Below, piece after piece: positions 3,862-21,661 of a DNA stretch of 59,006 nucleotides. Source of the DNA: Alphaproteobacteria bacterium UBA828. GTDB taxonomy: Bacteria; Pseudomonadota; Alphaproteobacteria; UBA828. The notes under the pieces are model-generated. The model had not been told where the DNA came from. It saw nothing but the letters and a program-made list of their open reading frames with translations, and ran no database searches. The stretch covers positions 1 through 59,006 of the forward strand of contig DBHM01000027.1 of NCBI GenBank assembly GCA_002296185.1. Direction: 5' to 3'. A program made the translations under genes and the position numbers. How positions within the stretch are numbered: position 1 is the first letter of the stretch; each line of letters opens with the position of its first letter.

Positions 3862-3872
3862 GATGATCCAAT

Positions 3873-3888: not shown

Positions 3889-3913
3889 TCTTTGGGCTAT
3901 ATAAACTTTACTT

Positions 3914-5059
3914 ATGATGATAAACGACCAAGAATCAATATTTGGCCATGGAGAGGGCCTGAGGGGTCCAGATTCTGCGAATTTGCGCAGAGGATGGACA
4001 ACGGGTGCCTGTGCTGCGGCAGCTGCCAAGGCGGCTACAGAGGGCCTATTGGGGGTGATTTTTCCTGATCCAATTACTATAGATCTTCCTAGGGGTATAA
4101 GGCAGCCTTTTAATATTACTGCATTTGAGTTTGGTCACAAGTGGGCTAGGGCAAGTGTAAGAAAAGATGCTGGCGACGATCCGGATGTAACACATGGAGC
4201 TTTAATTGTTTGTGAAGTACGTATTACTGAGCCTGGGTCAGGAATCAGATTTATAGCTGGTTCAGGTGTTGGCACAGTGACACGACCAGGTCTCCCTATT
4301 TCTGTTGGAGAGCCTGCTATAAGTCCAGGACCAAGAAAATACATAAAGGAGGCTATCGAAAGCGTTACTGAAAGGGAAAATAAACCATGCAATTTTGATA
4401 TTATCATATCAGTGCCGGGCGGAGAAAAACTTGCTCAAAAGACTCTAAATGAGAGGCTTGGGATTAAGGGTGGAATTTCAATTCTTGGTACGACGGGAGT
4501 GGTTATTCCATATTCCTGCGGTGCATGGATAGCATCGATACACAGAGGGGTTGATGTCGCTCGTGCTGCAGGGCTAACACACATTGCAGCAGCTACAGGA
4601 AGAACATCAGAAACAGGTGTAAAAGACTTACATCAATTATCTGACCAAGCAATTATAGATATGGGTGATTTTGCAGGTGGATTTTTAAAATATCTTTCAA
4701 AGAATCCGTTGCCTCGGGTAACAATAGCTGGGGGGTTTGCAAAAATAGCTAAGCTAGCAAGAGGGCACTTAGATCTTCACTCTAAAAGAAGTCAGATAGA
4801 TATAGAATACCTAGTTACTAGCCTGTCCACCTTAGGTGCTAGTGATGAAATAATAAATGAAGCTAAAATGTCTAGTAGTGGAGCTGAAATATTATTGATT
4901 GCCCAAAAAGCTAAACTACCCCTAGCAAATCTTGTTGCTGTTGACAGTTGTAAGGTCGTGATTCAAACGCTCTCATCTGGCGATCATGCAAGTGGCATCT
5001 CTGTTGATGTGGTTATTTTTGATAGAAACGGTGTTTTGGTTGGACATGCAAATGGATAA
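3914..5059 (+). CDS. cbiD: Cobalt-precorrin-5B C1-methyltransferase
   Basis: LRRGWTTGACAAAAAKAA, KDAGDDPDVTHG, GVGTVTRPGL, LGIKGGISILGTTG. Confidence 0.96.
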   Translation: MMINDQESIFGHGEGLRGPDSANLRRGWTTGACAAAAAKAATEGLLGVIFPDPITIDLPRGIRQPFNITAFEFGHKWARASVRKDAGDDPDVTHGALIVCEVRITEPGSGIRFIAGSGVGTVTRPGLPISVGEPAISPGPRKYIKEAIESVTERENKPCNFDIIISVPGGEKLAQKTLNERLGIKGGISILGTTGVVIPYSCGAWIASIHRGVDVARAAGLTHIAAATGRTSETGVKDLHQLSDQAIIDMGDFAGGFLKYLSKNPLPRVTIAGGFAKIAKLARGHLDLHSKRSQIDIEYLVTSLSTLGASDEIINEAKMSSSGAEILLIAQKAKLPLANLVAVDSCKVVIQTLSSGDHASGISVDVVIFDRNGVLVGHANG

Positions 5060-5813
5060 GGGGCCTATACTAATTCTCGGTGGAACTCACGAAGCGAGAA
5101 AATTAGCAGAGCATCTGACAAAAGAATTGGGTAATAATTCAGTAATAAGCTCTCTTTCTGGTGCTACAGAAAAACCAAAAAGTTTACCTGGGAAATCACG
5201 CATAGGTGGTTTCGGAGGGGCTGAAAAATTTGGAGAATTTCTGCTAGATAATCGAGTTATAGCAGTAATAGACGCAACTCATCCTTTTGCTGAACGTATA
5301 TCTGTCAACGCTATAACTGCTTGTAGAAAAGTTAATATACCATTGATCAGCCTACAAAGAAAACCATGGCAGAAACATAAAAATGACAATTGGATAGTGG
5401 TGCGTGATTTACCTGCTGCTGTCGATTTAGCGCCGAATTTTGGACTAAGAGTATTCCTGAGTTTAGGACCAAGAGCCATTTCATATTTTTCCAGGCATAC
5501 CGATTTGTGGTTTCTTGTGAGGGTGATTGATGCACCGGAAGAGCCTATAAAACTAAAAAATTATAAACTAGTTTTAGGGCGTGGCCCTTTTAATTTAGAA
5601 GATGAGTTAAATCTATTAAAAAGAAACAATATAGATTTGCTAATTACTCGAAATAGTGGGGGCGAAGCTTCATATGCTAAGATCTTAGCCGCTAGGAAAC
5701 TAAGTCTTCCAGTGGTTATCATCAAACAACCAATAAACATAAATCTTCATGTGGCTAATAGTTTAGATGATACACTTAATTTAATATCATCTCAGTTAGG
5801 CCGAAAAATATGA
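5052..5813 (+). CDS. cobK: Precorrin-6A/cobalt-precorrin-6A reductase
   Basis: ILILGGTHEAR, RIGGFGG, IDATHPFA, RGPF, TRNSGG; start moved to ATG 5052, an 8-nt overlap with the cbiD stop. Confidence 0.94.
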   Translation: MDKGPILILGGTHEARKLAEHLTKELGNNSVISSLSGATEKPKSLPGKSRIGGFGGAEKFGEFLLDNRVIAVIDATHPFAERISVNAITACRKVNIPLISLQRKPWQKHKNDNWIVVRDLPAAVDLAPNFGLRVFLSLGPRAISYFSRHTDLWFLVRVIDAPEEPIKLKNYKLVLGRGPFNLEDELNLLKRNNIDLLITRNSGGEASYAKILAARKLSLPVVIIKQPININLHVANSLDDTLNLISSQLGRKI

Positions 5814-6547
5814 GTATGATCCTTGCTATATAGCAAGCTATCAATTGATTGGTCGCTATTTAATGATTTACTTATAATTATTAGTGCCGTTCGAGTGATT
5901 CCTGCTGATTTCACTTTACCCTTGATGTCTTGGAGAGTGCCATAAATAATTTTTTCGTCAGGCCATGATATACGGTAGCCAATGATGATAGGGCAATCAG
6001 CTCCATAATAAGGGATCAGTGTTTTTACAACTTTTGCGAGGTTATTAATAGAAAGATGAATTGCTAGTGCTGCTCCAGTCGAAGCGAGGTTGCTTAATTC
6101 TTCTCCTGGAGGCATCTTTGAAGCGCGAACAGCTGTCCGGGTTAGTATAATCGTTTGAGTCAAACTGGGTGAAGTTAGCTCTTTTTTCATGGCCGCAGCA
6201 GCTGCGGCAAATGCTGGTACGCCAGGAGTTATATCGTAATCGATATCCAGTTTTTTGAGTCGATAAATTTGTTCATTAACTGCTCCGTATAGGGAAGTAT
6301 CACCTGAGTGGAGTCGCACAATAATATCTCCACTTGCATGATATTTTATAATTACTTCTATTATTTCATCTAAAGTCATCGTGGCTGTATTTATAACAGT
6401 ATGAGCGTTTTTAGCTTGTTTTACTAAGTCTTCAGGTACTAGTGATCCTGCGTACAAAACGACTTGGGCTTTTTTTAAAAGATTGAGCCCTCTCACAGTG
6501 ATTAAGTCTGGTGCTCCGGGCCCGGCGCCAATAAAATGAACTGTCAT
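5792..6547 (-). CDS. cobM: Precorrin-4 C11-methyltransferase
   Basis: VHFIGAGPGAPDLITVRG, YAGSLV, RLHSGDTSLYGA, PGVPAF; 3' end overlaps cobK convergently by 22 nt. Confidence 0.96.
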   Translation of the reverse strand: MTVHFIGAGPGAPDLITVRGLNLLKKAQVVLYAGSLVPEDLVKQAKNAHTVINTATMTLDEIIEVIIKYHASGDIIVRLHSGDTSLYGAVNEQIYRLKKLDIDYDITPGVPAFAAAAAAMKKELTSPSLTQTIILTRTAVRASKMPPGEELSNLASTGAALAIHLSINNLAKVVKTLIPYYGADCPIIIGYRISWPDEKIIYGTLQDIKGKVKSAGITRTALIIISKSLNSDQSIDSLLYSKDHTHIFRPN

Positions 6548-8355
6548 TGACTGCTCACATTTTTTTGATGATATCCACGTGGAGTATAAATGTATGATCT
6601 CCCCGCATTACGCGCATTACGTGTTTCATGGTTACCAATTATTAAAATGGTAAGCATATCTATTAGGTCTTCATTTAGATCTCTAAGTTTGAGCATTTTA
6701 ACATTTTCATTTCTCCGCCCCAAGCAGCGCGCAACAATCACCGGGCATTCTGGTCCTCTATTATTTTTAATAATATGTAGAGCTTTTTTGAGTGGTTGCC
6801 TCCTATTTTTTCCTGCGGGGTTATAGAGTGCAATGACAAACCCAGACTCAATAGCAGCAGAAACTCTTTTTTCAATTATTTTTAAGGGTGTTAAAAGGTC
6901 AGATAATGAAATCGCGCAAAAGTCATGTCCAAGTGGAGCCCCTGCACGAGCAGATGCTGCTTGCATGGCGCTTATGCCTGGTTCGACGACTACATCAACG
7001 AATCTCCATTCAGAGTCTTCAATCTGTTCAAGAAGTTCAAAAACTAGACTTGCCATTCCATAAATACCAGCATCACCAGAGCATATTAGAGCAGTATCTT
7101 CACCTTTTGCGGCTAAGTTTAGAGCCATACTAGCTCTCTTAGTTTCATCTCCGATGGTAAAAGAGTGCTTAAGACAATTGATGTTTAGATGCTCAATAAG
7201 TTCTAAATATCCAACATACCCTACATGGTGTTGGCTTTCATTGAGTGCTTTGAGAACCGCAGGTGTCATCCAGCTTTTCTGACCTGGCCCAAGCCCTACT
7301 ATGGTAAGTCGGCCAATTCTTCGTCCAACCTCTTCTATATTTATACTATTTTTTGACTGCGCTATAGAGCACGTTACACCTTTTGCGCTCTGTTTTGGCG
7401 CAATGAGGGAAGATTCTGATCCCGCTGCACACAGGGCAGCTCCTTCTGCAACCCCGTAACAGCCAACAGCTTCAAATACGGTATTTGAGGGATTTATTAA
7501 TCGTAAACGTTGTTCATTTAATTGATGAACATCAAAAAATATAAGAGGTACCTCAAGGTGCGAAGATAGGTCGCGAATTGCAACTTCATCTGCTTTTAAG
7601 TCTATTGATGTTATACATGCAATCGAGGATGGAGATATTTTATTATCCTTTATCATTTTCTCAGCAAGATTAATTAATTCTTTTGATTTTACTTCTCTTT
7701 CGCAACCTACGCCTATTGCAATTGTTTTTGGTATTAGCACTACATCACCACAAGCATCGGATTTATCACTAAGAGTTATAGAAAGTTTGGCGTCTTCATT
7801 CCATTTATATTGATCTTTTATCCACGAGCAGTCTCCGGATTCAACTTGAAGGCGTACTGGCTTATCGTTTAAAATTGCGTTTGTAACTTCCTTAACCTTA
7901 CTTTTATGGTTGATTTCCCACCCTGGTGGAGGATCATCAAAGGCAGTATCAATTAATGTTTCGCTTGCTGTGGTGTTCACTAGAGACGCTTGTAACTTTA
8001 AAGCAATATCCTTTCCGATTTTATTTCCCCCTCTGTGGCCCCCTAGTATGGGTATAACAAAAGATCCATCAGTCGATATGGCTATTACTGGTGGTTCTTC
8101 TAGCTTATTAGATATAATTGGTGCCAAGGCTCGAATGAGAATACCACTAGAGCATATCCCTATAATTGGTCTTCCTGCCAAAAAAAGTGACTGAAGAAGA
8201 GGTGAGATATTTTCAAAAGCACTGTCTTTATTTCCGGCTATATTTTTAGGTGCGTATATCTCACAAGGGAAGCATGCTGCACTCAAAGTTTTTGCGATAT
8301 TAGCACTATAGGTATTAAGTGTAATGACTGCCGCGAGATTGTTTCGAGTATTCAT
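6544..8355 (-). CDS. cobJ: CbiG (cobalt-precorrin-5A hydrolase)/CobE domains fused to precorrin-3B C17-methyltransferase
   Basis: N-half: GILIRALAP, EPPVIAI, GGHRGGN, TTASE, GVGC, GVAEGAAL (CbiG). C-half: VGLGPG, SGDAGIYGMA, PGISAMQAASARAGAPLGHDFCAISLSDLLTP, ALYNP, YTPRGY (CobJ/CbiH). Confidence 0.92.
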   Translation of the reverse strand: MNTRNNLAAVITLNTYSANIAKTLSAACFPCEIYAPKNIAGNKDSAFENISPLLQSLFLAGRPIIGICSSGILIRALAPIISNKLEEPPVIAISTDGSFVIPILGGHRGGNKIGKDIALKLQASLVNTTASETLIDTAFDDPPPGWEINHKSKVKEVTNAILNDKPVRLQVESGDCSWIKDQYKWNEDAKLSITLSDKSDACGDVVLIPKTIAIGVGCEREVKSKELINLAEKMIKDNKISPSSIACITSIDLKADEVAIRDLSSHLEVPLIFFDVHQLNEQRLRLINPSNTVFEAVGCYGVAEGAALCAAGSESSLIAPKQSAKGVTCSIAQSKNSINIEEVGRRIGRLTIVGLGPGQKSWMTPAVLKALNESQHHVGYVGYLELIEHLNINCLKHSFTIGDETKRASMALNLAAKGEDTALICSGDAGIYGMASLVFELLEQIEDSEWRFVDVVVEPGISAMQAASARAGAPLGHDFCAISLSDLLTPLKIIEKRVSAAIESGFVIALYNPAGKNRRQPLKKALHIIKNNRGPECPVIVARCLGRRNENVKMLKLRDLNEDLIDMLTILIIGNHETRNARNAGRSYIYTPRGYHQKNVSSQ

Positions 8356-9056
8356 TTCCAGGCATCTCCTCTTCGGTGTGCCATAATTATTGAGAAATAT
8401 GGAACTGGAGCGGATATTTCAGAAAGTGGAACTATTCTCTCTTCCTTAAGCCCTGCGCGTTCAATGTATTGTGCATTGTCCATAAGACCTGATTTTTTTA
8501 GTGCTGAAAGTATTTTTTTTATGTGACGTCCAATTTTGACAACAACAACTCCTTCTGCTACCTCCATTTTTTTTATTATTTGTTCTTCGGGTAGTGTCCC
8601 TGGAATAATAACCAAGCAATCATTTTTTGTTACTAGTGGTTTTCCAAGAATTGCTGCACAAGCCATTGGAGAGGATACTCCGGGGACTACAACTACTTTT
8701 TCCGTCTTTATTAATCGTTCAAAAAGATAAATGAAAGAGCCATATAGAAAAGGATCTCCTTCGCAAATTGCCGCAATATCAGAACCGGAATCAAGTAATT
8801 TAGAAATCTTAGTTGTAGCTTCACCATAAACCTCGTCAGAAGGAAACTGAGAGTTTTCGAGCGGCATTTTGATAGCAATTTCTGTGTATTTTTTATCCAA
8901 ATGGGGATCTATAATTTTTCGTGCAAGAGAGTCCCCGTCTAGTGGAGCGGGATAAACTAGAATATCTACAGATTTAAGAATTTTAAGTGCTTTGACGGTT
9001 ATTAGGTCGGAATCCCCGGGTCCAATTCCTAATCCGTATAGGGTTCCCTTAGTCAC
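8352..9056 (-). CDS. cobI: Precorrin-2 C20-methyltransferase
   Basis: GTLYGLGIGPGDSDLITVKA, EGDPFLYGSF, PGVSS, VPYFS. Confidence 0.95.
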   Translation of the reverse strand: MTKGTLYGLGIGPGDSDLITVKALKILKSVDILVYPAPLDGDSLARKIIDPHLDKKYTEIAIKMPLENSQFPSDEVYGEATTKISKLLDSGSDIAAICEGDPFLYGSFIYLFERLIKTEKVVVVPGVSSPMACAAILGKPLVTKNDCLVIIPGTLPEEQIIKKMEVAEGVVVVKIGRHIKKILSALKKSGLMDNAQYIERAGLKEERIVPLSEISAPVPYFSIIMAHRRGDAWK

Positions 9057-10267
9057 GATTTATCTACTTCTAGCTGTGTTATGGGGTTTAGGGGTTTCCA
9101 AGCGACATGAGATCCAATTGGTGTTGCTCGTGAAATTGATATTCTATTCAGCTTTCCTCCATAATTTTCATAGAATTTCTGCAAGGTATATTCACTTTTG
9201 ATAGTAACGGCATTTGCCACTAATCGTCCTCCTGGTTTTAGCCGTTGCCAGCATTCATCAAGAACACCTGGAATGCTAATACCTCCTCCAACAAAAATAG
9301 CATCTGGGTCAGGAAGAGAAATGAAGGAATTAGGAGCTAGACCATGTTCAATTTTTAGTCTTGGTACACCAAGGTTATTTGCATTCTCAGCAATAAGTAC
9401 ACAAACATCTTTGTTTTTCTCCAGGGCTATAGCTTCATTGTTGGAGTTAGCTAAAAGCCATTCAATACTGATAGATCCAGAGCCTGCGCCTATATCCCAG
9501 AGTAATCCGGTAAGCATCGGCTTTAGCGCAGATAATGTAAGAACTCGTATCTCTCTTTTTGTCAATAAGCTGCTATTACGGAATGCCTTATCAGGAAGAC
9601 CTAATCCCCCCGCAAACCTCTTTGCTCGATCCTCAGATTTACACTCAATTGCTATAGTATTTAATTTTTCTAAATGTGTTTCTTTCCAGTTTTGAGCTGT
9701 ACAGGTTATTTTTTTTTCTTTACTTCCACCCAAGTTCTCAAAAACATGAATTATACTTTTCCCATATCCTAAATTTGTTAGTTCTTTTGCTACTTTAATT
9801 GGGGTTTCTCCGTTTTGAGTGAGCGAAATAATACGAGCATTATCAGCAAGTTTACTACGCAATATTTCCAAAGGTCTGCCATGAAGAGATATCAGGTCAA
9901 CCTTATTACTTGGCCAGAGCAAGCGTGAACAAACCATGCTAAAAGCAGATAAGTATGGGGTAACAGACATTTCGGCGCCTGAGAAGTGTTCCGATAAAGT
10001 AACCCCAATGCCAAAATGCATAGGATCTCCTGTAGAGAGTACAACTACAGACATTCCTTTATGAGCCGCTATTTCATTTATAGTTTTAGAGATAGGTGTT
10101 TGCCAAACAATACGTTTAAAATCTTGAGGAAGAGCAGACTCAATTATTTTAAAATGTCTTTCAGCCCCAACTATCACCCGGGCCTCTTTGATTAATTTTA
10201 AAGAGTGGGTGCATAGACTCTCTTCCCCGTTTTCACCAATCCCAATGATATTTAACCAGGCACTCAT
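9053..10267 (-). CDS. cobL: Precorrin-6Y C5,15-methyltransferase (decarboxylating), CbiE-CbiT fusion
   Basis: WLNIIGIGENG, STGDPMHFGIG, SLHGR, GLPD, LTKREIR, WDIGAGSGSI, GGRLVANAVT. Confidence 0.95.
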   Translation of the reverse strand: MSAWLNIIGIGENGEESLCTHSLKLIKEARVIVGAERHFKIIESALPQDFKRIVWQTPISKTINEIAAHKGMSVVVLSTGDPMHFGIGVTLSEHFSGAEMSVTPYLSAFSMVCSRLLWPSNKVDLISLHGRPLEILRSKLADNARIISLTQNGETPIKVAKELTNLGYGKSIIHVFENLGGSKEKKITCTAQNWKETHLEKLNTIAIECKSEDRAKRFAGGLGLPDKAFRNSSLLTKREIRVLTLSALKPMLTGLLWDIGAGSGSISIEWLLANSNNEAIALEKNKDVCVLIAENANNLGVPRLKIEHGLAPNSFISLPDPDAIFVGGGISIPGVLDECWQRLKPGGRLVANAVTIKSEYTLQKFYENYGGKLNRISISRATPIGSHVAWKPLNPITQLEVDKS

Positions 10268-10893
10268 TAGATTCCCCTTGCTAGGGCATTAAGGGCTGCT
10301 ACAGCCATAGCACTTCCTCCCAATCTACCTCTCACTGCAATAAATGGAATACCTCTATTATCATTAATCAGTGCCTCTTTGCTTTCTGAGGCGCCGACAA
10401 AACCTGGCGGTGTTGCGATTACTAGGGCGGGTGTATTGTTTGGTGTGTCAATAATTTCAAGAAGACGAAAGAGAGCTGTAGGAGCATTTCCAATAACTAC
10501 AATAGAATTCTTTAGAAAGGGTTGCCAGAGATCAACTGCCGCCATAGCTCGGGTAATTTTAGTGTTAGTACTAATTTTTCGAGTCCTATCATCATTCAGT
10601 GTGCATAAGATATTATTATTTTTTGGAAGGGCTGAAAGATCTATTCCAGCCGTTACCATATTAACATCTACTATTATTGTTGCTCCTTCGCTGAGTGCTT
10701 GCTGACCTGATGAGACCGCATTTTTTGAAAAATCAATATAATTGTGTAACTCTGTTATTCCGCAGGTATGTATCATACGGCTAGCAATTGGACGCATATT
10801 TTTAGGTAAAATTTCGAGATTTATTTCGCGCTCAATAATATTGAATGAACGCCTAGTAATCTCCTCTGGATCTCTAATATAATTATTATTCAT
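10267..10893 (-). CDS. cobH: Precorrin-8X methylmutase
   Basis: RMIHTCG, VIGNAPTALF, PPGFVGASESKEAL, RGRLGGSAMAVAALNA; ATG 10893 overlaps the cbiX stop by 8 nt (alternative start 10905). Confidence 0.95.
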   Translation of the reverse strand: MNNNYIRDPEEITRRSFNIIEREINLEILPKNMRPIASRMIHTCGITELHNYIDFSKNAVSSGQQALSEGATIIVDVNMVTAGIDLSALPKNNNILCTLNDDRTRKISTNTKITRAMAAVDLWQPFLKNSIVVIGNAPTALFRLLEIIDTPNNTPALVIATPPGFVGASESKEALINDNRGIPFIAVRGRLGGSAMAVAALNALARGI

Positions 10894-11812
10894 TATGCTT
10901 ATCATGATTGTGACTGTGATGGTGTTGCTCTGATTCAGTTCCTATCCCCTCAACATGGTGGTGATGTCCAACTTGAGCGGCCCCATGATCATGCTCATAG
11001 CCTATTATTTGCTCGCGATATTTACAGAGCTGACAATTCATTACATTTTTACCTATTGTGATTTCATCTAACCGGGAAATGAAGCTGTCAACGACTAATG
11101 GATGATCACCAAGATACTTGGCTACAGAAAAATTTATATCTTTGTAGTTTTCCCTTGCCTCATTGACGGCGTCATAAATTCTTTTTACCAAAACACCAGT
11201 GAAGAGAAAGTATGGGAAGACCATTATTCGATTAAATCCAAGTTTTACAACCTTTTCCAAAGCTGGTCGGATTAGTGGATAAGTGACTCCTGTATAAGCT
11301 ACCTCTGCCCAACCAAAATTCATTCCTTCCCAAAGCATACGTGTAACCTTTGATATATTTGAATTTGCGTCTGGATCAGAGGTTCCTCGTCCTACAACAA
11401 GTAGTAATGTATCTTCACGAGAAATAAATTCAGAGCAATTTTGTTCTGCATTTTCAATGCGAGCACGACTTGCTGCAATAAGTTTAGGGTGAATAGCTAG
11501 TTCACGGCCATAAGAAATTTCAAAACCATCATTATCAGCAATAAAATTATTTAATACAGAAGGAATATCATTTTTTGCATGACCTGCAGCAAATAGCATG
11601 CCTGGCAAAGCCTCAACGCGGCTTATACCTGAATTTCTCATTTGAGTTAGTTTTTCACCTATGGTAGGTCGAGCAAACTCAAGAAAACCATGATCTACAA
11701 ACCTATTTGGTAGACGTTTTGTTATAAGTTTTGCAAGATTCTGAAACTCCGAGACAGCTTCAATATCTCGACTACCATGGCCGCAGAGTAGAATGGCTGG
11801 TTCATCTGCCAT
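10886..11812 (-). CDS. cbiX: Long-form CbiX sirohydrochlorin chelatase with C-terminal Cys motif and His-rich tail
   Basis: LLCGHGSRD, FLEFARP, AGHAKND, second lobe VGRGTSDPDAN, MNCQLCKYR, GHHHHVEG...QHHHSHNHDKH; strong AGGAG SD. Confidence 0.92.
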   Translation of the reverse strand: MADEPAILLCGHGSRDIEAVSEFQNLAKLITKRLPNRFVDHGFLEFARPTIGEKLTQMRNSGISRVEALPGMLFAAGHAKNDIPSVLNNFIADNDGFEISYGRELAIHPKLIAASRARIENAEQNCSEFISREDTLLLVVGRGTSDPDANSNISKVTRMLWEGMNFGWAEVAYTGVTYPLIRPALEKVVKLGFNRIMVFPYFLFTGVLVKRIYDAVNEARENYKDINFSVAKYLGDHPLVVDSFISRLDEITIGKNVMNCQLCKYREQIIGYEHDHGAAQVGHHHHVEGIGTESEQHHHSHNHDKHNE

Positions 11813-11870: not shown

Positions 11871-12896
11871 ATGGAAAATTTAATGATATGGTACTTCCCT
11901 GACTGGTCTTTTATGGACTGGGCCACAGGCCCTGGCAATGCCTTGATTCTTATTTTTGCCCTTATTCTTGATGGAATAATAGGCGATCCTCGCTGGTTTC
12001 CTCATCCAGTTCGGGGTATAGGGATAATTATTCAGCTCTTCGACAAAGTTTTGAATCGTAGTATTTTTAGTGAGACCCTTAAAAAGGCATTGGGTCTTTT
12101 GACTGTTATTTTTATTGTTGGAGCAATGTTTGTAGCCGGATGGTTTCTTGGAGGATATGCCAAAAGCATTCCTTATTGTTGGCTCATTGAACTCTTTTTT
12201 ATTACTATTTTGATGGCTCAGCGGAGTATGGTAGATCATGCAACTTTGGTGGTCACGCAAATGCGCCATAATGGTATTTCTGGCGGTAGGGCTGCTGTAG
12301 GCCTCATAGTTGGAAGAGAAGTCTCTAAATTGGATGAAAAAGGTATTTCGCGAGCAACCATTGAGAGTACCGCAGAGAGCTTTACTGATGGAGTTTTTGC
12401 TCCGATATTCTGGTATCTGCTCTTGGGGTTGCCGGGTCTTTTCGCTTATAAATCTATTAGTACCCTCGATAGTATGGTTGGATATAAAACAACAAAATAT
12501 ATGGCTTTTGGTATGGCTGCGGCAAAGACTGATGACTTTGCCAGCTGGATTCCTGCCCGTATCGCAGGGCTGATTATTGCTTTTGCAGCAATATTTATTC
12601 CTGGTGCATCTTTTAGGGGTGCGTTTTCTATTTTCTTCCGGGACTCTAGAAATCATAGTTCTCCCAATGCAGGGTATACCGAAGCTGCAATGGCCGGTGC
12701 TTTGGGTCTGAGACTTCTTGGCCCCAGGAAGTATAGTGGTGTTATTTCTGAAGACACTAGATGGTTGGGTGCGGGGGCTAAGGACGCAAATAAGGATGAC
12801 ATTATCCAAGCTATAAAGATTTTTTCTGTTGCTTGTTTTATCACTGGCGTACTGGTCGCTATATTGGCGGTAATAATTCAGTTTAGTATTTCCTAG
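11871..12896 (+). CDS. cobD: Adenosylcobinamide-phosphate synthase CbiB/CobD
   Basis: LDGIIGDPRWFPHPV, IVGRE, ESTAESFTDGVFAP, YKSISTLDSMVGY, SPNAGYTEAAMAGAL; exact start uncertain because ATG 11871 has no SD. Confidence 0.95.
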   Translation: MENLMIWYFPDWSFMDWATGPGNALILIFALILDGIIGDPRWFPHPVRGIGIIIQLFDKVLNRSIFSETLKKALGLLTVIFIVGAMFVAGWFLGGYAKSIPYCWLIELFFITILMAQRSMVDHATLVVTQMRHNGISGGRAAVGLIVGREVSKLDEKGISRATIESTAESFTDGVFAPIFWYLLLGLPGLFAYKSISTLDSMVGYKTTKYMAFGMAAAKTDDFASWIPARIAGLIIAFAAIFIPGASFRGAFSIFFRDSRNHSSPNAGYTEAAMAGALGLRLLGPRKYSGVISEDTRWLGAGAKDANKDDIIQAIKIFSVACFITGVLVAILAVIIQFSIS

Positions 12897-12911
12897 TGGG
12901 CTAACGTGCAT
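11880..12911 (-). other. 343-codon in-register antisense ORF spanning all of cobD; possible overlapping gene or translated spacer
   Basis: Listed in the ORF track; codon-aligned with cobD, which has no TTA/CTA/TCA after codon 4; ATG 12911 overlaps the cobQ stop by 11 nt. No recognisable protein motif. Confidence 0.35.
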
Positions 12912-14424
12912 GGGCTATCTCTATAATTCTATCAATATCAATTGATCCTTCAATTTTTTTTGCCAGACCATTTAGTGCTTCTTCCACTTCATTGTTCCAG
13001 TTTATCAATATATTATTAGCTCTTTCCTCTTCTCTCAAAGACGCAAGCCAAGCATGCCTGAAGGAGTCATTTTGGAAGATACCATGAATATAAGTTCCAG
13101 AAATATTTCCGCTCAGCGAAATTGCTCCGTCAATTTTTCCTGTACTTAATTTACACAACGGGCGTTCTAAGTCTGGTCCGTCTGTTTGGCCCATATGCAT
13201 TTCATATCCCTGGATCTCCGTATTAGTTTGTATGTGTTTACCGCTTACTTCTAAGAGAGTTTTTTCTTCTGTGATTCTAGTTGAAACATTAAGTAGTCCA
13301 AGACCTTCTTCTGTCCCTGGCGTGCCTTCAACGCCTATCTCGTCGTTAATTATTTTTCCTAGTATTTGAAATCCTCCACAGAGGCCTAGAATGATTCCCC
13401 CGCGACGAGCAAAAGCAATTATATCTGTATCCCAACCTTCCAATCTTAGATCTTTCAAATCAGCTCTTGTTGCTTTTGACCCAGGAATAATTAGTGCATC
13501 TATATTGGTGGGGATAACTTGCCCTGGTTGCAAAAAACTTACTTTAACATCTGGTTCTGCTATTAGAGGATCAATATCATCAAAATTTGAGATACGTGAT
13601 AGGCGAACAACCATTACATGAAGTGGGTCCAAATTATTTTTATTGGGAGGTTTATTGTACTCTTTATTTTTTTTATCTATACTTGATGAATCTTCTTCAG
13701 GCAGTATCGCTGCCTCAGATAGCCAGGGGACAACCCCAAGAAGGGGAGCTTTTATCCTATTTTCTAGTATAGTTTTTGCATCATCAAATAAGGATGTGTC
13801 GCCTCTAAACTTATTAACAATAAGCCCTTTTATCCTCTTTCGTTCAGAATCTGAAAGTAATTCGAAGGTTCCTACTAGACTCGCTATAACCCCCCCTCTT
13901 TCTATGTCGCCCACTAAAACTACGGGTAAATCTGCTGCTTCAGCGAATCCCATATTCGCCAAGTCTCCTTCACGTAGATTTACTTCTGCAGTGCTCCCAG
14001 CTCCCTCAACCAGAACAATATCAGCCTTTGAGCTAATAGAATAAAAACTATCGAGAACATGAGGCAGTAAAGTAGGTTTAAGAGAATGATATTCTCGCGC
14101 CTGTGCATTACATAAAACCCTTCCACGTACGATAACTTGTGAACCAATTTCACTTTGAGGTTTGAGTAAAATTGGATTCATATCTGATATTGGTAGGACC
14201 CCTGCTGCTCGTGCCTGTAACGCCTGTGCTCTACCAATTTCACCCCCTTCACAAATCGCAGCATTATTTGACATGTTTTGGGGTTTGAAGGGATATACAT
14301 TAAGCCCTCTAATTGCTAATGCTCGCGCTAATCCGCTAACTAACAAAGATTTTCCGACATCAGAACCAGTTCCTTGAATCATTACTGAAGGGGTATTACC
14401 CAATTTTGTTGGCAATGATGACAT
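12901..14424 (-). CDS. cobQ: Cobyric acid synthase
   Basis: MIQGTGSDVGKS, FKPQNMSNNA, EIGRAQALQA, VEGAGS, RISNFDD, GLCGGFQILG, GYEMHMG, GTYIHG. Confidence 0.97.
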   Translation of the reverse strand: MSSLPTKLGNTPSVMIQGTGSDVGKSLLVSGLARALAIRGLNVYPFKPQNMSNNAAICEGGEIGRAQALQARAAGVLPISDMNPILLKPQSEIGSQVIVRGRVLCNAQAREYHSLKPTLLPHVLDSFYSISSKADIVLVEGAGSTAEVNLREGDLANMGFAEAADLPVVLVGDIERGGVIASLVGTFELLSDSERKRIKGLIVNKFRGDTSLFDDAKTILENRIKAPLLGVVPWLSEAAILPEEDSSSIDKKNKEYNKPPNKNNLDPLHVMVVRLSRISNFDDIDPLIAEPDVKVSFLQPGQVIPTNIDALIIPGSKATRADLKDLRLEGWDTDIIAFARRGGIILGLCGGFQILGKIINDEIGVEGTPGTEEGLGLLNVSTRITEEKTLLEVSGKHIQTNTEIQGYEMHMGQTDGPDLERPLCKLSTGKIDGAISLSGNISGTYIHGIFQNDSFRHAWLASLREEERANNILINWNNEVEEALNGLAKKIEGSIDIDRIIEIAHAR

Positions 14425-14426
14425 GG

Positions 14427-15053
14427 CTAAAATTCTATGCCTTTTTGTGCCTTTACACCTTGACGGAAAGGGTGTTTCACCTCACTCATTTCTGTGACAA
14501 GATCTGCTATTTCCATAAGTTCGGGTTTTGCGTTTCTGCCTGTTGCGACAATATGCAGTTCCTTTCTTCTAGTTGATAGTATTTCAATGACACTTCTAAT
14601 CGGTAGATAGTCGTACCTGAGTACAATATTAATCTCGTCTAGTATTATCATGTTGTAGCTAGTGTCTTTGATAAGCTCTTGTGCCTTCATCCATGCTGAT
14701 TCAGCGGCGGTAATATCTCTTTGTCTGTCTTGGGTATCCCAGGTAAACCCTTCACCCATTACTGAGATGGTGCAAAATTCGGGGAATTTTTCTAAAACAA
14801 CTCTTTCACCAGTTTCCCATTTACCTTTAACAAATTGAACTATGCCTACTTTCATCCCGTTTCCTATAGCCCTAGAGGCTAATCCAAATGCAGCTGTTGA
14901 CTTTCCTTTACCCTTTCCGGTGTGAACAATAAGCAGACCTTTCTCTATAGTTTTGGTAGCTAAAACCCTGTCTCTGGCAGCTTTTTTCTTAGCCATACGA
15001 TCAGCGTGATGGCGGTTCAACTCAGACTCACTCATTTGATCACGTTTCTTCAA
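14427..15053 (-). CDS. cobO: Cob(I)yrinic acid a,c-diamide adenosyltransferase
   Basis: HTGKGKGKSTAAFG, QFVKG, GEGFTW, LDEIN, TGRNA, KHPF...AQKGIEF; start may be ATG 15035. Confidence 0.96.
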   Translation of the reverse strand: MKKRDQMSESELNRHHADRMAKKKAARDRVLATKTIEKGLLIVHTGKGKGKSTAAFGLASRAIGNGMKVGIVQFVKGKWETGERVVLEKFPEFCTISVMGEGFTWDTQDRQRDITAAESAWMKAQELIKDTSYNMIILDEINIVLRYDYLPIRSVIEILSTRRKELHIVATGRNAKPELMEIADLVTEMSEVKHPFRQGVKAQKGIEF

Positions 15054-15058
15054 TTGTT

Positions 15059-18000
15059 TTATTCCTCTATCTTATAATTTAAGACCTCATCGATTAAAGC
15101 TGCATACTGGTTACTTTGTGGCTTCCAAAGATTTCTATCAACTGCTTCCCTAAATCTTGAGGCTATTTCTTTTAACGCTGATGGATTGGCGTTTAAAATG
15201 AAGTCGTGTACTTCTTGGTTTACTATATACGCATCAAATAATTGTTCAAAATGATGGTTTTCAACGGCATTTGTAGTTGCTGCGAATGCGAATAAATAGT
15301 CAAGCGTTGCTGAAATTTCAAAGGCACCCTTATATCCATGTTTCATGACGCCTCTAATCCATTTTGGATTGGCAGCCCTTCCTCTAACAACTCTACTAAT
15401 TTCTTCACTTAGGGAACGAATCACAGGATTTGCAGGATTACTGTGGTCATTATGATATATGGAGGGTGCTTTACCTTTTTGGGACTTTTGGACAGCTGCG
15501 GATAAACCACCTTCAAATTGGTAATAATCATCACTGTCTAATATATCGTGCTCTCGATTGTCTTGATTTTGAATTATTGCTTGGACTCTACTTAAGCGTT
15601 CTTCAAATAGTTCGTAATCTGGTTCTCCCTGGCAGTCTGCTCCGTAGACCCATCCTCCCCAGGTTATATAGGCATCCGCTAAATCCTCCCTTCTTTTCCA
15701 CCCACTCTCATCAATTAGTGCCTGTAATCCTGCCCCATAGGACCCGGGCATGGAGCCGAAAATTCGTCGGCTTGCTCTAAGGGCTGCTGTATTTTTGTCT
15801 ACTCCCTTTCGTTGCATCAAGTTTGTTTCAAGTTTAACTTGTGCTGCAAAGGGATTTATAAACTCATTCTCGTCTAGTTTGCTAATAGCTCGGGTTGCAG
15901 AGTCAAAAAGAGAAATGAGTCCTGGAAAAGCATCGCGGAAGAAACCTGATATGCGTAAAGTTACATCTACTCGAGGCCGGTCCAACAAGTTTTGAGGAAG
16001 GATTTCAAATCCTGTTACTCTGCCGTTATGATTGTCCCATGTTGGACGTGCGCCAATTAGAGCCATTGCTTGAGCGATATCATCTCCACCAGTTCTCATA
16101 CAAGCAGTTCCCCAAGCGCTAATAGCCATATTTTTTGGCCATTCTCCGTGCTCCTGAGCGTATTGTTCGCAAACCCTTTGGGCAGATTTCCAGCCTAGTA
16201 GCCATGCTGCATTAGTAGGTAGTGAACGAGTATCAACAGAATAAAAATTTCTTCCAGTAGGTAAAACTTCTGGCCTTCCCCTACTCGGTGCGCCAGAAGG
16301 CCCAGGAGGAACAAAACGGCCATCAAGGGCGGTCAAAAGCCCCTCTACTTCCTTAGGTCCGCTTTCATATAAAGCTGGACGTATGCGAGAATTAATTTCC
16401 TTAAGAATAGGAAGTGTTTTTGACCATTTAGCTTTGGGTGGTTGCTCCATCGCGACAAGTTTAGAAGCCAATATCTCGAGCCGCTCCACTGTATCTCCAT
16501 AAGTTCTCCAAGAATTTTCGTTAGCCAGCTCGTAAGGTTTCGGTCCATCCCATATTGCCCCCATATCGCAATCTAAGGGGTCAAAGCCGAGCCCTAAATC
16601 ATTACTTAGTGCTTGAGTTATAGAACAGTCTTTTTCCTCAGATCCTCTTGGTACGCGAGTCAGGGAAACAAGAAAATCTGCAGTTTTTGATTCATCAGGT
16701 GTCTTACCAAATATATGTAGGCCATCACGGATTTGCATTTCTTTAATCTCGCATAAGTATGTATCAACTTTTGATAATGCTGTCTCAGTGCTATCATTCT
16801 CATTAATTCCACAATCCAGGTCTAAGCCTATAGATTGGACGAGACTCAAAATATTCTCTGATAGCGGCTTTAGCCGGCGTTTATCTAGGTGGCTCGCCTC
16901 AAAATATTCATCAATTAGTGTTTCTAATTCACCTAATTCACCATGTGTGTCAGCTCTTGTTAGTGGGGGTGTAAGGTGGTCAATAATGACAGCCTGAGTC
17001 CGTCGTTTCGCTTGGCTACCTTCTCCAGGGTCATTGACAATGAACGGATAAATATTGGGAGTAGGACCGAGTATTGCATCCGGATAACAATCGGCTGATA
17101 GAGCTAATGATTTCCCAGGAAGCCACTCTAGACTCCCGTGTTTTCCAACATGAACTATTGCATCTGCGGAGAAATTTTTTCTAGCCCAGAAATACGCTGC
17201 GAAGTATCCGTGGGGCGGAACAAGTGCTGGATCGTGATAAGTTTTAGTTGGATCAATATTATATCCCCTCGCAGGTTGTATCATGACACAAATTTTTCCG
17301 AAGCATTTAGCTGGTAGAGAAAAATGATCTCCCAATTTGTCTTTTCTAAAAAATGGATCATTAATAGGTCCCCCCCATCTTTTTTCAACAGCGGACCTGA
17401 TTTCTTCTGATAGAGAAGAAAAAAATAATTGATAATCCGTTAAGGTAACCTTTTCTGTATATTTGTGCTTCTCACTTACTTCTTTGTTGTTTGTTACACC
17501 ATTTAGTAAGTGATCCATGAGACCTTTTCCTGTTAGGCAACTAGTGCCTACATCATAACCCTCTTCTCCAAGTATTCTTATGATTCTAGCAGTACTTTCG
17601 GGGGTATCTAATCCAACACCATTTCCAATTCTCCCATTACGGTTTGGATAATTTGCTAATACCATTAATATTTTTTTCTTATATCTTGGAGTTTTTCTTA
17701 AGTGCGCCCATGATTTAGTAAGCTTTGATACAAACTTTATACGTTCTTCATCGGGCTTTAATGATATTAGAGATGTCTGAGTTTGATCGTCACGTTTATC
17801 TTCTGTTTTAAACGCAATTGCACGAGAAAAAATTCTCCCGTCAACCTCTGGAAGTGCGACATGCATAGCTATATCTCTTGCAGTGAGTCCATACGTTTCT
17901 TCCTTCCACATTTCAATTGTTTGACTCGAAAAAGCTACCTGAAGAATGGGAGCGTCAAAATCGTCTAAGGGGGATTTCCTAGTCTTCCCTGGCGATGAAA

Positions 18001-18817
18001 CTGCAAAAGCACAGGAATTGATAATGACTTCTATATCAGTAGTCTCAAATGCGGTTTTAAGAAAAGCTGCTGCAGAAGGATCTCTAAGGCTAGATATAAA
18101 TATAGGGAGTGGGTTAAGATTTAGTTTTTGGAGCTCGTTAATTAGACTTTTAATTGGAGATACATGATCTGCTTGAACTAAAGCTCTATAAAAAAGTATA
18201 GGTATTACAGGTTGATCATTTACCCAGTTATCAAAAATAGTATTTGCAGTATCTATTTGATTATAATTTAGTTCAGGACAATAAAATCCGGCTTTTGGGA
18301 GTAGTTTAGGCTCTTCGTATGTTATTGGTATTCCTATAATATTCGTACTATATCTCAAAAAATTATAGGCATTTTCACTTCCTCCGTGGATTAAGAATTG
18401 CCATAATTTTCTTACAATCTCTTCAGGTAGTGTACTATTCTTTATTAATTGAATGTCAGGTGTGTCATCGCCAGGTAGGAATGCTAAAGCTATATTTTTT
18501 TCTCTACATATTATTGAGAGTCTTTCCACGCCATAGGGCCAATAGCTTGTTCCTCCAAGTATACGAATAACAACCAGTTGTGAATGCTGAATGACTTGGT
18601 CTACCCAGAGATCTATAGACAGGTTGTGAGACAAGTGCATTAGGTTAGCAAGTCTTAAGCTAGGTTTGTTGGCATCCAGCCTTGCGTATGCTTTTGCCAA
18701 AGCGCTTATCTCAGTATCTGCAGCTGAAGCAAAAATAATGTCACCAGGTGTTTGATCAAGGTCTACCGCTTCATTGCTATCTGCAATATTTCCAGGTTTT
18801 GCTGCGAGCAAATGCAC
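15059..18817 (-). CDS. cobN: Cobaltochelatase subunit CobN
   Basis: 1252 aa; MHLLAA start, ALPEVDGRI, NYPNRNGRIGNGVGLDTP, HVGKHGSLEWLPGK, PFIVNDPGEGSQAKRR, LPTGRNFY, DILDSDDYY, NPKWI. Confidence 0.97.
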   Translation of the reverse strand: MHLLAAKPGNIADSNEAVDLDQTPGDIIFASAADTEISALAKAYARLDANKPSLRLANLMHLSHNLSIDLWVDQVIQHSQLVVIRILGGTSYWPYGVERLSIICREKNIALAFLPGDDTPDIQLIKNSTLPEEIVRKLWQFLIHGGSENAYNFLRYSTNIIGIPITYEEPKLLPKAGFYCPELNYNQIDTANTIFDNWVNDQPVIPILFYRALVQADHVSPIKSLINELQKLNLNPLPIFISSLRDPSAAAFLKTAFETTDIEVIINSCAFAVSSPGKTRKSPLDDFDAPILQVAFSSQTIEMWKEETYGLTARDIAMHVALPEVDGRIFSRAIAFKTEDKRDDQTQTSLISLKPDEERIKFVSKLTKSWAHLRKTPRYKKKILMVLANYPNRNGRIGNGVGLDTPESTARIIRILGEEGYDVGTSCLTGKGLMDHLLNGVTNNKEVSEKHKYTEKVTLTDYQLFFSSLSEEIRSAVEKRWGGPINDPFFRKDKLGDHFSLPAKCFGKICVMIQPARGYNIDPTKTYHDPALVPPHGYFAAYFWARKNFSADAIVHVGKHGSLEWLPGKSLALSADCYPDAILGPTPNIYPFIVNDPGEGSQAKRRTQAVIIDHLTPPLTRADTHGELGELETLIDEYFEASHLDKRRLKPLSENILSLVQSIGLDLDCGINENDSTETALSKVDTYLCEIKEMQIRDGLHIFGKTPDESKTADFLVSLTRVPRGSEEKDCSITQALSNDLGLGFDPLDCDMGAIWDGPKPYELANENSWRTYGDTVERLEILASKLVAMEQPPKAKWSKTLPILKEINSRIRPALYESGPKEVEGLLTALDGRFVPPGPSGAPSRGRPEVLPTGRNFYSVDTRSLPTNAAWLLGWKSAQRVCEQYAQEHGEWPKNMAISAWGTACMRTGGDDIAQAMALIGARPTWDNHNGRVTGFEILPQNLLDRPRVDVTLRISGFFRDAFPGLISLFDSATRAISKLDENEFINPFAAQVKLETNLMQRKGVDKNTAALRASRRIFGSMPGSYGAGLQALIDESGWKRREDLADAYITWGGWVYGADCQGEPDYELFEERLSRVQAIIQNQDNREHDILDSDDYYQFEGGLSAAVQKSQKGKAPSIYHNDHSNPANPVIRSLSEEISRVVRGRAANPKWIRGVMKHGYKGAFEISATLDYLFAFAATTNAVENHHFEQLFDAYIVNQEVHDFILNANPSALKEIASRFREAVDRNLWKPQSNQYAALIDEVLNYKIEE

Positions 18818-18820
18818 AAC

Positions 18821-19864
18821 TTAGGCTTCCACTGTTGCAAGAATTTTTTCTATCTCAATTGGACGTTCTGCAATAAATACTAATTGGCTGAATCGTTCTT
18901 CATTAGGCCCCCAATCACGATCATAATGGCGGTCAATTCTTGGCCCTACTGCCTGTAGTACATGGCGACGTGGTTTTCCCTCTATATTAAGAAATCCTTT
19001 GATACGCAAAATATTGTGTTCATTAATTATATCTATTAGTTGATTTTCTAATAACGACGGATCATTAATTACTCCTAGGTTTAGTACAAAACTCTCAAAA
19101 TCTTCGTGCTCATGCTCATCATCATTGTCATGATGAGATTTACGATTTTCAATATCAAGTTCTGAATTTGCCTTTATTCCTGTAATTATAGATGGAGGTA
19201 CCTTGGCATGTTCCGCTATGACTATGGAAACCCCTTTTCTGCTAAAATTTAATAATTTTTCTCTAAGTTTATTCTGCTCTTTTATTTCCAGCTGATCAGC
19301 TTTATTAAGTACTATGAGATCTGCGCAGGCTAATTGATCTTCAAAGACTTCAGAAATTGGACTTTCATGGTCCAGTGAATCATCATCAATTCTTGCGGCC
19401 TCAACAAGCTCTGGGTTATCCGCAAATCGTCCGTCTCTAACGGCCGGTCCGTCGATAACGGCTATAACGCCATCAACAGTTACTCTATGTCGTATTTCTG
19501 GCCAATTAAATGCTTGAACGAGTGGCTTTGGTAAGGCAAGGCCACTCGTTTCTATAACAATATGGTCTGGCAACTCTTCCTGACTCAGAATTTTTTCCAT
19601 TACAGGGAGGAATTCATCAGCAACAGTGCAGCAAATACATCCATTTGCGAGCTCAACTATATCATCGTCGCTACACAGTTCATTCCCACAACCTGATATT
19701 AGTTCACTATCAACCCCTAAGTCTCCAAATTCGTTAATAATAAGGGCAATTTTTTGGCCATTATTCTCTATGAGAAGATTTCTGATAAGGCTAGTTTTAC
19801 CCGAACCTAAGAAACCAGAGATAACAGTAGCAGGGATTTTTTTATTAATTTTATGTAATATCAT
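18821..19864 (-). CDS. cobW: Cobalamin biosynthesis GTPase/metallochaperone
   Basis: SGFLGSGKT, INEFG, NGCICCT (CxCC), ETSG, NKAD, His/acid-rich SHHDNDDEHEHED, LRIKG. Confidence 0.96.
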   Translation of the reverse strand: MILHKINKKIPATVISGFLGSGKTSLIRNLLIENNGQKIALIINEFGDLGVDSELISGCGNELCSDDDIVELANGCICCTVADEFLPVMEKILSQEELPDHIVIETSGLALPKPLVQAFNWPEIRHRVTVDGVIAVIDGPAVRDGRFADNPELVEAARIDDDSLDHESPISEVFEDQLACADLIVLNKADQLEIKEQNKLREKLLNFSRKGVSIVIAEHAKVPPSIITGIKANSELDIENRKSHHDNDDEHEHEDFESFVLNLGVINDPSLLENQLIDIINEHNILRIKGFLNIEGKPRRHVLQAVGPRIDRHYDRDWGPNEERFSQLVFIAERPIEIEKILATVEA

Positions 19865-19879
19865 TTTAATTTATTACCT

Positions 19880-20821
19880 TTAAATTCGATGCCAAGAAGT
19901 TTTGTTATGTCCAAAGTTAAATATTTCCTGGTTTAGTATTTCTGAGATTATTTCTATAGACTGAAAGAGCCTTGGACCGGAGCGATTTATGTGTGCATTA
20001 CCATCAACAGCAAAGCATTCATTTGTTTTTACTGCTCGTAGATTTTTCCATGAATTACATGTAATAGTTTGATGAGACTCTATGTATGATTTTTCCAAAG
20101 AAAAACTACATGGAGCAAAAATAATAACATCAGGATCTTTTTCTAATATTTCATCAAGCGTTATACGCCTTGAGGGTTGACCAGGTCTTGTAAAAATGTT
20201 CTCCCCTCCTGCAATAGCGACTAATTCTGGAACCCAGTTTCCCGCAGCTATCAATGGATCGATCCATTCTATTATTGCCACTCGCTTTGGTTGAATGTCC
20301 ATAGCTTGGGATTTCATAGCAATTTGGACAATTTTTCTTGTAATATTATGTGTGCATAAATCAGCTTTAGATTTTCCTTTTGGACCTAAGATTTCTCCTA
20401 CTTTGCGTATATCTGCCCACACATCTCCAAGCCTAGATGGGTTGAGGGATACGATAGATATCTTTTTATTTAAGAAAGTAGCTAGGGCAGACTGTAAATA
20501 CTCCATACTAATCGAGCATTCTTCACACTGATCTTGTGTAATTATATGAGTGGGATTTAATTTGGAGATCTTTTCTTTGTTTACTTCGAATATACTAATT
20601 GCTGATTCAAAAAGATTTTGCATATCATCATGAATCTCTTTGCTAGATTTTTCTGGGAAAATTCTTGTATTTGTACAAATAGGTACTTCATTTGCTGCTG
20701 CAGGATAGTCACATTCGTGTGATCTTCCCACTATATTTTTGATATAGCCTAGCTCAGCAACTATTTCGGTAGCGCTGGGAAGTAAGGATATTATTCTTAA
20801 GCTAGATTCTTTTTTGTTCAT
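19880..20821 (-). CDS. BtuF-like class III binding-fold protein (cobalamin-binding family), no signal peptide
   Basis: RIISLLPSATEIV, GRSHECDYP, TQDQCEEC, EWIDPLIAAGNWVPELVAIAGG, PDVIIFAPC, NRSGPRL; the domain starts at residue ~8. Confidence 0.8.
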   Translation of the reverse strand: MNKKESSLRIISLLPSATEIVAELGYIKNIVGRSHECDYPAAANEVPICTNTRIFPEKSSKEIHDDMQNLFESAISIFEVNKEKISKLNPTHIITQDQCEECSISMEYLQSALATFLNKKISIVSLNPSRLGDVWADIRKVGEILGPKGKSKADLCTHNITRKIVQIAMKSQAMDIQPKRVAIIEWIDPLIAAGNWVPELVAIAGGENIFTRPGQPSRRITLDEILEKDPDVIIFAPCSFSLEKSYIESHQTITCNSWKNLRAVKTNECFAVDGNAHINRSGPRLFQSIEIISEILNQEIFNFGHNKTSWHRI

Positions 20822-21369
20822 TTATTTTTCTTTATGTTAATTGGTATGCCGGCAGTAACGAGATAAACTTCGTCCGCCACCTTAGCAATTAGTTGGTTAA
20901 GGTTCCCGGAATAATCACGGAAAGTTCGTGCAAGGGGATTATCTGGCACTATTCCTTGCCCAACTTCATTGCTAACAAAGATAATTGTACCTTCTATCTG
21001 ACTCATTAATTTGGCCAAATTTTCACTTTCATCAATAACAGAATAGTTTGCCATCATAAGGTTGCTGATCCATATAGTTAGACAATCTACAAGTATGATA
21101 TTTTTTGATGTTGAGTTTTGCTTTATTGATGAAATTAGATTTAGAGGAGACTCTAATGTATTCCAAAAAGGGCCTCTTCTCTTTCTATGTTCATTAATAC
21201 GGGCAGCCATCTCTGGATCTTTTGCTTCTGCAGTAGCAATATATATATGCGGTCCTTCGTGTCTTTCTGCTAGGGATTCAGCGTACGTACTCTTCCCTGA
21301 GCGACTGCCGCCCAAAATTAATATACATTTGCGCGTTGTTTGGGAGCGCAATCCGCTATTTGTTTTCAT
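20818..21369 (-). CDS. cobU: Bifunctional adenosylcobinamide kinase/adenosylcobinamide-phosphate guanylyltransferase (CobU/CobP)
   Basis: ILGGSRSGKS, YIATA, EHRKRR, LVDCLTIW, SNEVGQGIVP, RDYSGNLNQ. Confidence 0.96.
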   Translation of the reverse strand: MKTNSGLRSQTTRKCILILGGSRSGKSTYAESLAERHEGPHIYIATAEAKDPEMAARINEHRKRRGPFWNTLESPLNLISSIKQNSTSKNIILVDCLTIWISNLMMANYSVIDESENLAKLMSQIEGTIIFVSNEVGQGIVPDNPLARTFRDYSGNLNQLIAKVADEVYLVTAGIPINIKKNK

Positions 21370-21384: not shown

Positions 21385-21398
21385 ATTTCTAGCTTGAC

Positions 21399-21621
21399 GT
21401 CCAGGAGGTCTCCTGGCTTGGTGTCATTAACGCTGTCGGCCTTCCCGCGTACTTTGTCTCTAGGGGACAGTTCTGCAGTGACATATTTTGCCAGCCATAA
21501 ATGTGGCATTGGGCATTTAGACAGCGTCTAATTCCTTACAGTTGCGGGGGCAGCACCGGACTAGCAATATTGCATCACCGGCTTCCCTGTCTAGACGTCA
21601 GGGACCAAGAGTAGCCTAGAC
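21399..21621 (-). ncRNA. Cobalamin (AdoCbl) riboswitch upstream of cobU
   Basis: Minus strand shows TGGT...AGGGAAGCCGGTG...TCCGGTGCTGCCCCCGCAACTGT, then CACTG...GGGAAGG and the B12 box AGCCAGGAGACCT; P1 = GUCUAGG (21621-15)/CCUGGAC (21405-399). Confidence 0.95.
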
Positions 21622-21661
21622 TGAGCATAGAAGCGAGTCGAATGATTAAAAGTATAAATTT

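Follow-up and report, generated by a model that had tools for sequence, protein, structure and literature searches.

P0001, the 313-residue product of a gene embedded in a riboswitch-headed cob operon, is predicted here to be a cytoplasmic corrinoid-binding and processing protein (estimated probability, about 0.55). It represents a family of BtuF-like proteins that carry four invariant cysteines and lack a leader peptide. This best reading is supported by the fold, the missing leader, a conserved signature, the layout of the operon, repeated vitamin B12 (cobalamin) contexts and gene fusions. The ligand would be a corrinoid, with the cysteines touching cobalt or holding an Fe-S cluster, and the chemistry would be redox or decyanation. 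Few intracellular steps in the handling of B12 and its precursors have been worked out for bacteria and archaea, including which protein accepts the corrinoid from the importer or the cobalt chelatase and which one reduces cobalt before adenosylation. Humans have dedicated B12 chaperones, MMACHC and MMADHC. The present family, widespread, highly conserved and apparently unstudied, is a concrete candidate for intracellular B12 handling.

The window (the whole stretch of DNA analysed, 59,006 nt) carries the operon on its minus strand, listed here in the direction of transcription:

21386..21635, minus strand: cobalamin riboswitch aptamer at the operon head (RF00174, 64.8 bits against a gathering threshold of 31.5, full model 1-189)
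20818..21369, minus strand: cobU/cobP, cobinamide kinase / guanylyltransferase (Pfam CobU, E 1e-61)
19880..20821, minus strand: leaderless four-cysteine BtuF-like gene, P0001 (313 aa; Pfam Peripla_BP_2)
18821..19864, minus strand: cobW, G3E GTPase (Pfam cobW, E 1e-54, and CobW_C)
15059..18817, minus strand: cobN, late cobaltochelatase large subunit (Pfam CobN-Mg_chel, 1238 bits)
14427..15053, minus strand: cobO, corrinoid adenosyltransferase (Pfam CobA_CobO_BtuR, E 3e-68)
12901..14424, minus strand: cobQ, cobyric acid synthase (Pfam GATase_3 and CbiA)

Riboswitch and cobU are spaced by 16 nt, the cobU stop and the P0001 start share 4 nt (ATGA), and 15 nt separate P0001 from cobW; a search of the minus strand up to cobQ for terminator-like sites found none. 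The operon coupling described in the sequence-only reading is therefore real, from the riboswitch through the overlap to the four downstream cob genes. Its remark that no transporter accompanies the gene also held, as no FecCD permease over the cut-off was found in the source genome (assembly of 1.6 Mb, 77% complete), where P0001 is the only Peripla_BP_2 gene detected at that level of completeness. The CobW kind of G3E GTPase has been reported to supply cobalt to CobN. The CobT chelatase subunit is encoded elsewhere in the source genome, so P0001 does not replace it, and P0001 as a stand-in for the CobS/CobT subunits was ruled out.

A TAA codon lies in frame immediately 5′ of the P0001 ATG; the N-terminus is thus not extendable and a signal peptide is impossible. 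Within the protein the first strand begins at residue 9, after 8 residues, and the N-terminal region has no h-region (top 15-residue hydropathy, 1.45). The earlier placement of the binding fold from about residue 8, without leader or lipobox, was borne out, and no export signal turned up upstream. The Sec/Tat signal or lipobox by which BtuF is exported is missing from P0001 and likewise from its family: at most 8 residues precede profile position 1 in 117 of 121 close homologues, and at most 17 lie ahead of the first strand in 142 of 150 diverse representatives (exactly one in 53 of them). A cytoplasmic location for P0001 is supported by this comparative evidence.

The other attribute of BtuF, a cognate FecCD-type permease with its ATPase, was likewise not found in the P0001 genome (77% complete) or in three carrier genomes of family f9, which are 92-98% complete and contain no FecCD permease over the cut-off. 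These three are small (1.4-1.6 Mb) and have no CobN, with 3-7 B12-binding-domain matches each. The BtuC-docking glutamates of BtuF, mapped by hand via Vibrio motifs, fall at positions 83 and 223, which are Glu in 39/149 (26%) and 49/149 (33%) of representatives, respectively. Docking to a permease has probably been lost in P0001. One locus described below (L117) does have a FecCD permease and a BtuD-like ATPase.

Pfam Peripla_BP_2 (PF01497) spans residues 10-273 of P0001 (E 5e-16) and is its sole Pfam family; the flavin reductase domain of CobR is thus absent, and a reductase role for P0001 could be conceived purely by analogy. An AlphaFold (AF2) model (pLDDT 90.7, pTM 0.88; helix at 147-172) was compared with solved structures, among which there is none of a close relative. 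The closest folds are those of tetrapyrrole binders, namely PhuT, ShuT, IsdE, HutB and BtuF (Foldseek E 1e-12 to 1e-17; VIA Z 20-24), with siderophore binders at VIA Z 15-20 and metal-ion binders of the TroA/ZnuA type (Lmb, AztC, FpvC) at no more than 11.2. A sequence comparison with the PDB puts Vibrio cholerae BtuF first (E 1e-15).

P0001 shares with BtuF (E. coli 1n2z/1n4a/5m29; Vibrio cholerae 5ysc) the class III two-lobe fold with a backbone helix, at VIA Z 22.0 for the Vibrio and 20.7 for the E. coli protein (Foldseek E 1e-12 to 1e-15). The Vibrio protein also has in common with it the N-terminal strand/helix motif, DYPP and NRPxPR, and both BtuF and the four-cysteine family occur in B12-riboswitch operons. 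Unlike BtuF, P0001 has no signal peptide and needs no cognate permease, and it exceeds the BtuF chains of known structure by some 60 residues; against the NCBIfam BtuF equivalog NF002894 it scores 36.7 bits, far under the cut-off of 234. Hand mapping places the four invariant cysteines and a histidine of the family where BtuF has aromatics, and Q96 of P0001 at the place of a stacking Trp that contacts B12. An Anabaena 'BtuF', alr4031, belongs to a btuFCD cluster (PMC10878165) and is not counted here as a member of the four-cysteine family. The heme binders ShuT, PhuT, HutB, IsdE and RhuT are also among the top structural neighbours (Z 20.9-23.4), and the IsdE model is the best, yet sub-threshold, NCBIfam match of P0001; in contrast to P0001, these heme binders are exported transporter parts without the cysteine signature.

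A word-based homologue search gave more than 7,700 matches, nearly all 300-320 aa long, from cyanobacteria, alpha- and gammaproteobacteria, Acidobacteriota, Binatota, Chloroflexota, Planctomycetota and others; clusters of look-alikes in the atlas, archaea included, come mainly from Nitrososphaerota, Nitrospirota and Verrucomicrobiota. In an exhaustive profile search, the family comprised 2,006 clusters (50% identity) at E <= 1e-30, among 19,379 Peripla_BP_2-like proteins. Mean column identity across phyla is 56%, which is very high for the Peripla_BP_2/BtuF fold. The family signature, in leaderless proteins of about 300-320 aa, consists of SHECD, TQxxCxxC, EWxxP, (N/H)WxPE, PCG and DG-x4-NRxGPR; P0001 has every signature residue, each of which is retained in 138-148 of 149 representatives. 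The cysteine motifs reported earlier for P0001 (HECD, QCEEC, here as part of QDQCEEC, and APC) are present as described and coincide with three of these elements:

20708..20719, minus strand: H35-E36-C37-D38 ('SHECD'), after strand 2 of the modelled N-lobe; H35 in 141/149, C37 in 143/149
20516..20536, minus strand: Q96-D-Q-C99-E-E-C102 ('TQxxCxxC'), after N-lobe strand 92-96; Q96 in 146/149, C99 in 140/149, C102 in 138/149
20108..20116, minus strand: A236-P237-C238 ('PCG'), in the C-lobe; C238 in 144/149

The four cysteines (C37, C99, C102 and C238) and H35 are thus retained in 138-144 of 149 representatives, and they persist in fused and eukaryotic forms. The fifth cysteine of P0001, C49, is L, V or I beyond its closest relatives. 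By the secondary structure of the model, the invariant residues come after C-terminal strand ends in both lobes. In the two-lobe fold of BtuF and the heme binders, loops in this position line the ligand cleft, and in P0001 the four cysteines and the histidine would, on the model, line it too. NCBI names members of the family 'cobalamin-binding protein' or 'ABC transporter substrate-binding protein', labels that are no proof of a transporter component here. Literature searches on cytoplasmic BtuF-like proteins, on DUF5522 and on candidates for remodelling in algae turned up no study of the four-cysteine family.

Gene contexts were collected from 80 loci in many phyla, out of matches in at least 594 species, and from 29 further loci of alphaproteobacterial carriers; the family gene is present in 45 of 401 evenly sampled alphaproteobacterial genomes. 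The order cobU-X-cobW-cobN-cobO-cobQ occurs in 3/80 loci, all from alphaproteobacterial metagenome-assembled genomes (L004, L037 and L038). Among the 29, the cob operon recurs in L098, which comes from the same family as the window, and in L123 the gene adjoins cbiB and a cobQ-like gene. The riboswitch scan described below added two different contexts, both of B12 uptake. In L117 (genome G392) a riboswitch and a TonB-dependent receptor gene are followed by the four-cysteine gene and then by a BtuD-like ABC ATPase of the heme/corrinoid type; alongside lie genes for a FecCD permease and for a second, distinct binding protein, which bears a hydrophobic leader. In L122 (G287) the order is riboswitch, TonB receptor, DUF6580 protein and four-cysteine protein.

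Some details of these two loci may be recorded. The ATPase of L117 is the first of a tandem pair (3260-4874, minus strand) after the leaderless gene; the second is of a general type, with ECF and PhnT-like ATPases as best matches, and the FecCD permease is encoded upstream of the riboswitch. In L122, the DUF6580 protein (6246-6743, minus strand; 165 aa), set between the riboswitch-controlled TonB receptor and the leaderless gene in a locus without BtuCD, is a candidate small inner-membrane B12 carrier; sought as a relative of BtuM, it had no match by phmmer against the PDB and none in NCBIfam.

RF00174 was scanned over 44 carrier genomes and the coordinates compared with those of the family gene. 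The gene lies within 4 kb downstream of a riboswitch in 3/44 carriers, against 0.035 expected by chance (P ~6e-6). In a quick maximum-likelihood tree (IQ-TREE), the cob-linked genes (window, L004, L037, L038 and L098, with L123) form one clade (SH-aLRT 97) beside cyanobacterial sequences, and L117 and L122 are placed elsewhere, apart from it. Links to B12 have therefore arisen independently at least three times, in the cob-operon clade and in two riboswitch-btuB uptake operons.

Most members stand alone, with no B12 gene or riboswitch nearby, among them those of cyanobacteria, acidobacteria and most alphaproteobacteria; it is thus a minority of lineages that ties the family to B12. No cobalamin riboswitch was found in 7 loci of other phyla; a TPP riboswitch lies about 2.7 kb upstream in one of them only (L015). 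Clustering of flanking ORFs over the 80 and 29 loci revealed no neighbour common across phyla. Neighbours are lineage-specific (histidine kinase, PutA, glycosyltransferase, mechanosensitive channel, carboxyltransferase, glutathione peroxidase), and a heme or siderophore gene context was seen in none of the loci examined. In one carrier of 1.6 Mb, a glutamine riboswitch (L114:4708-4758, minus strand) lies just downstream of the BtuF-like gene, ahead of a gene for a circularly permuted ATP-grasp protein; it is probably unrelated to the BtuF-like gene.

Presence of the family gene does not follow that of CobN. At E <= 1e-100, CobN was found in 19/45 alphaproteobacterial carriers and 107/356 non-carriers (P = 0.12), leaving 26/45 carriers without it, and dependence on CobN was rejected on these counts. 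The sequence-only reading had allowed for a protein serving CobN or CobO; with so many carriers lacking CobN and most members lacking a cob neighbour, such service is unsupported as a family property. Linkage of homologues to cob genes is seen in the cob-operon clade and not in the majority. The cobalamin riboswitch itself occurs in 43/44 carrier genomes versus 49/80 non-carriers (P ~3e-6), a contrast in which relatives are not independent and genome size is a confounder, small host-associated genomes being without both the family gene and the riboswitch.

Longer homologues join the four-cysteine domain to other domains, always with all four cysteines retained. In Hyphomicrobiaceae-type bacteria it follows PF01902 (DUF71, a PP-loop ATPase); in proteins of chytrid fungi and a green alga it precedes DUF5522 (CCGxxCRHCP), with or without PF01902; in a further fusion it precedes a CN-hydrolase, and one more gene model joins it to a TonB receptor. 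For one subgroup of DUF71, known from bacteria and archaea, a role in B12 salvage has been predicted because its genes cluster with btuCDF and cbiB (de Crecy-Lagard et al. 2012, PMC3541065). These DUF71-B12 PP-loop ATPases are a separate protein family, to which the PF01902 domains fused to four-cysteine members may or may not belong. When PF01902 and DUF5522 partners were sought in the source genome none was found; since the DUF5522 search matched no control genome either, its blank there says little. No mention of DUF5522 was found in the literature.

Five of the fused proteins (P0130, P0131, P0133, P0134 and P0135; eukaryotic and unplaced, 670-770 aa), from Botryococcus and chytrids among others, combine the four-cysteine domain with DUF5522 and a DUF71-like PP-loop ATPase. 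Green algal and chytrid lineages of this kind use B12 and are not known to make it, so the fusion protein may be a eukaryotic enzyme of B12 salvage or remodelling.

Some observations speak against a corrinoid. Four cysteines, a histidine and an aspartate placed after strands of both lobes also fit a metal-ion or Fe-S site, and heme binders are structurally as close as BtuF. Binding of a free metal ion (Co2+, Zn2+ or similar) in the manner of TroA/ZnuA would let P0001 buffer cobalt in the cytoplasm or assist CobW and CobN, in keeping with its place directly upstream of cobW-cobN and with the positions in the model, after strands of both lobes, of the invariant H35/C37, C99/C102, C238 and D273, which presumably match the places of the metal ligands in TroA-type binders. 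NCBIfam TroA_like does match P0001, but at 19.3 bits, under the 30-bit cut-off, and over residues 174-237 only. A free-metal role had been among the earlier suggestions and now appears improbable, since the fold is much nearer to heme and B12 binders (Z 20-24, and 15-24 with siderophore binders included) than to metal-ion binders (<= 11.2); moreover, most carriers lack CobN, and the family's other contexts belong to B12 uptake, with a permease of the FecCD (chelate) type in place of metal-ion transporters. Somewhat less improbable, though still unlikely, is that the protein serves a different ligand in the cytoplasm, for instance heme, some other tetrapyrrole or an unrelated compound on which a thiol or Fe-S enzyme acts; its B12 contexts would be lineage-specific additions or a matter of regulation only. 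The solitary setting of most members beside unrelated genes would then be natural, as would the rank of ShuT, PhuT and IsdE among the structural matches, and the fusions to DUF5522, PP-loop ATPase and CN-hydrolase in eukaryotes and bacteria could reflect chemistry other than that of B12. Against it are at least three independent B12 links, far beyond chance, the cobalamin riboswitches in nearly all carriers and the lack of any heme or siderophore context in the loci examined.

Export by a route that needs no classical signal, to act outside the cytoplasm as the binding protein of a BtuCD-type importer, would agree with the NCBI names and with L117, where the gene sits between btuB and a btuD-like ATPase, a frequent place for btuF. 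We consider it very improbable: a leader is missing in almost every member, there are carriers without a detected FecCD permease, L117 encodes a separate leader-bearing binding protein, the hand-mapped docking positions are Glu in only a quarter to a third of representatives, and the periplasm would tend to oxidise a site of four cysteines. The cytoplasmic corrinoid-binding and processing protein favoured here retains two parts of the earlier proposal of a corrinoid chaperone or store, namely the location, from the leaderless state of the family, and the connection with B12, from synthesis and uptake operons behind riboswitches.

In the mechanism that we envisage for this corrinoid protein, the ligand would sit between the lobes, in a cleft formed with the near-invariant His-x-Cys, the Q-x-x-C-x-x-C turn, the C-lobe cysteine and a BtuF-like NRxGPR. 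The cysteines and histidine might provide an axial thiolate (as in BtuM and MMADHC), a redox dithiol (the CxxC) or ligands of an Fe-S cluster. Within the cob operon, P0001 would take up the product of CobN/CobST, a cobalt-corrinoid whose metal comes from CobW, and hand it to the adenosyltransferase CobO, perhaps after thiol- or cluster-mediated reduction; relatives in uptake operons would do the same service for imported B12. The four-cysteine protein would thus be an intracellular acceptor, escort or processor of corrinoids. The simplest common denominator of synthesis and uptake would be a step in which a cobalt-corrinoid is accepted and readied for adenosylation. Cysteine chemistry on cobalt, with B12 held inside the cell or at its boundary, has precedents in BtuM, which ligates B12 through Cys and decyanates it (PMC6072759), and in human MMACHC/MMADHC, with a Co-S bond (PMC12501144). 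These are functional analogies only, with no sequence or fold kinship to the four-cysteine family.

More tentatively, and as a possibility that we regard as doubtful, the whole family could be the missing prokaryotic factor of intracellular B12 trafficking and processing, with fused forms in chytrids and green algae, whose Cys4(+His) cleft would take corrinoids from BtuCD, DUF6580-type carriers or CobNST, reduce or decyanate them and pass them to adenosyltransferase. If true, this would supply a reductase or escort step that is unassigned in many organisms.

Beyond cobQ, the window contains further genes of the pathway. The next, on the plus strand at 11871-12896, is a real cbiB/cobD gene (Pfam CobD_Cbib, E 6e-92; 50-55% identity in related loci), and a 343-aa ORF on the opposite strand (11880-12911), which overlaps it nearly in full and matches no family, is a shadow ORF. 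The minus-strand region 5792-11812 includes, as family calls confirm, a CbiX-like chelatase of two domains (10886-11812) and a CbiG-CobJ fusion (6544-8355), mixed with the late chelatase CobN in the same window.
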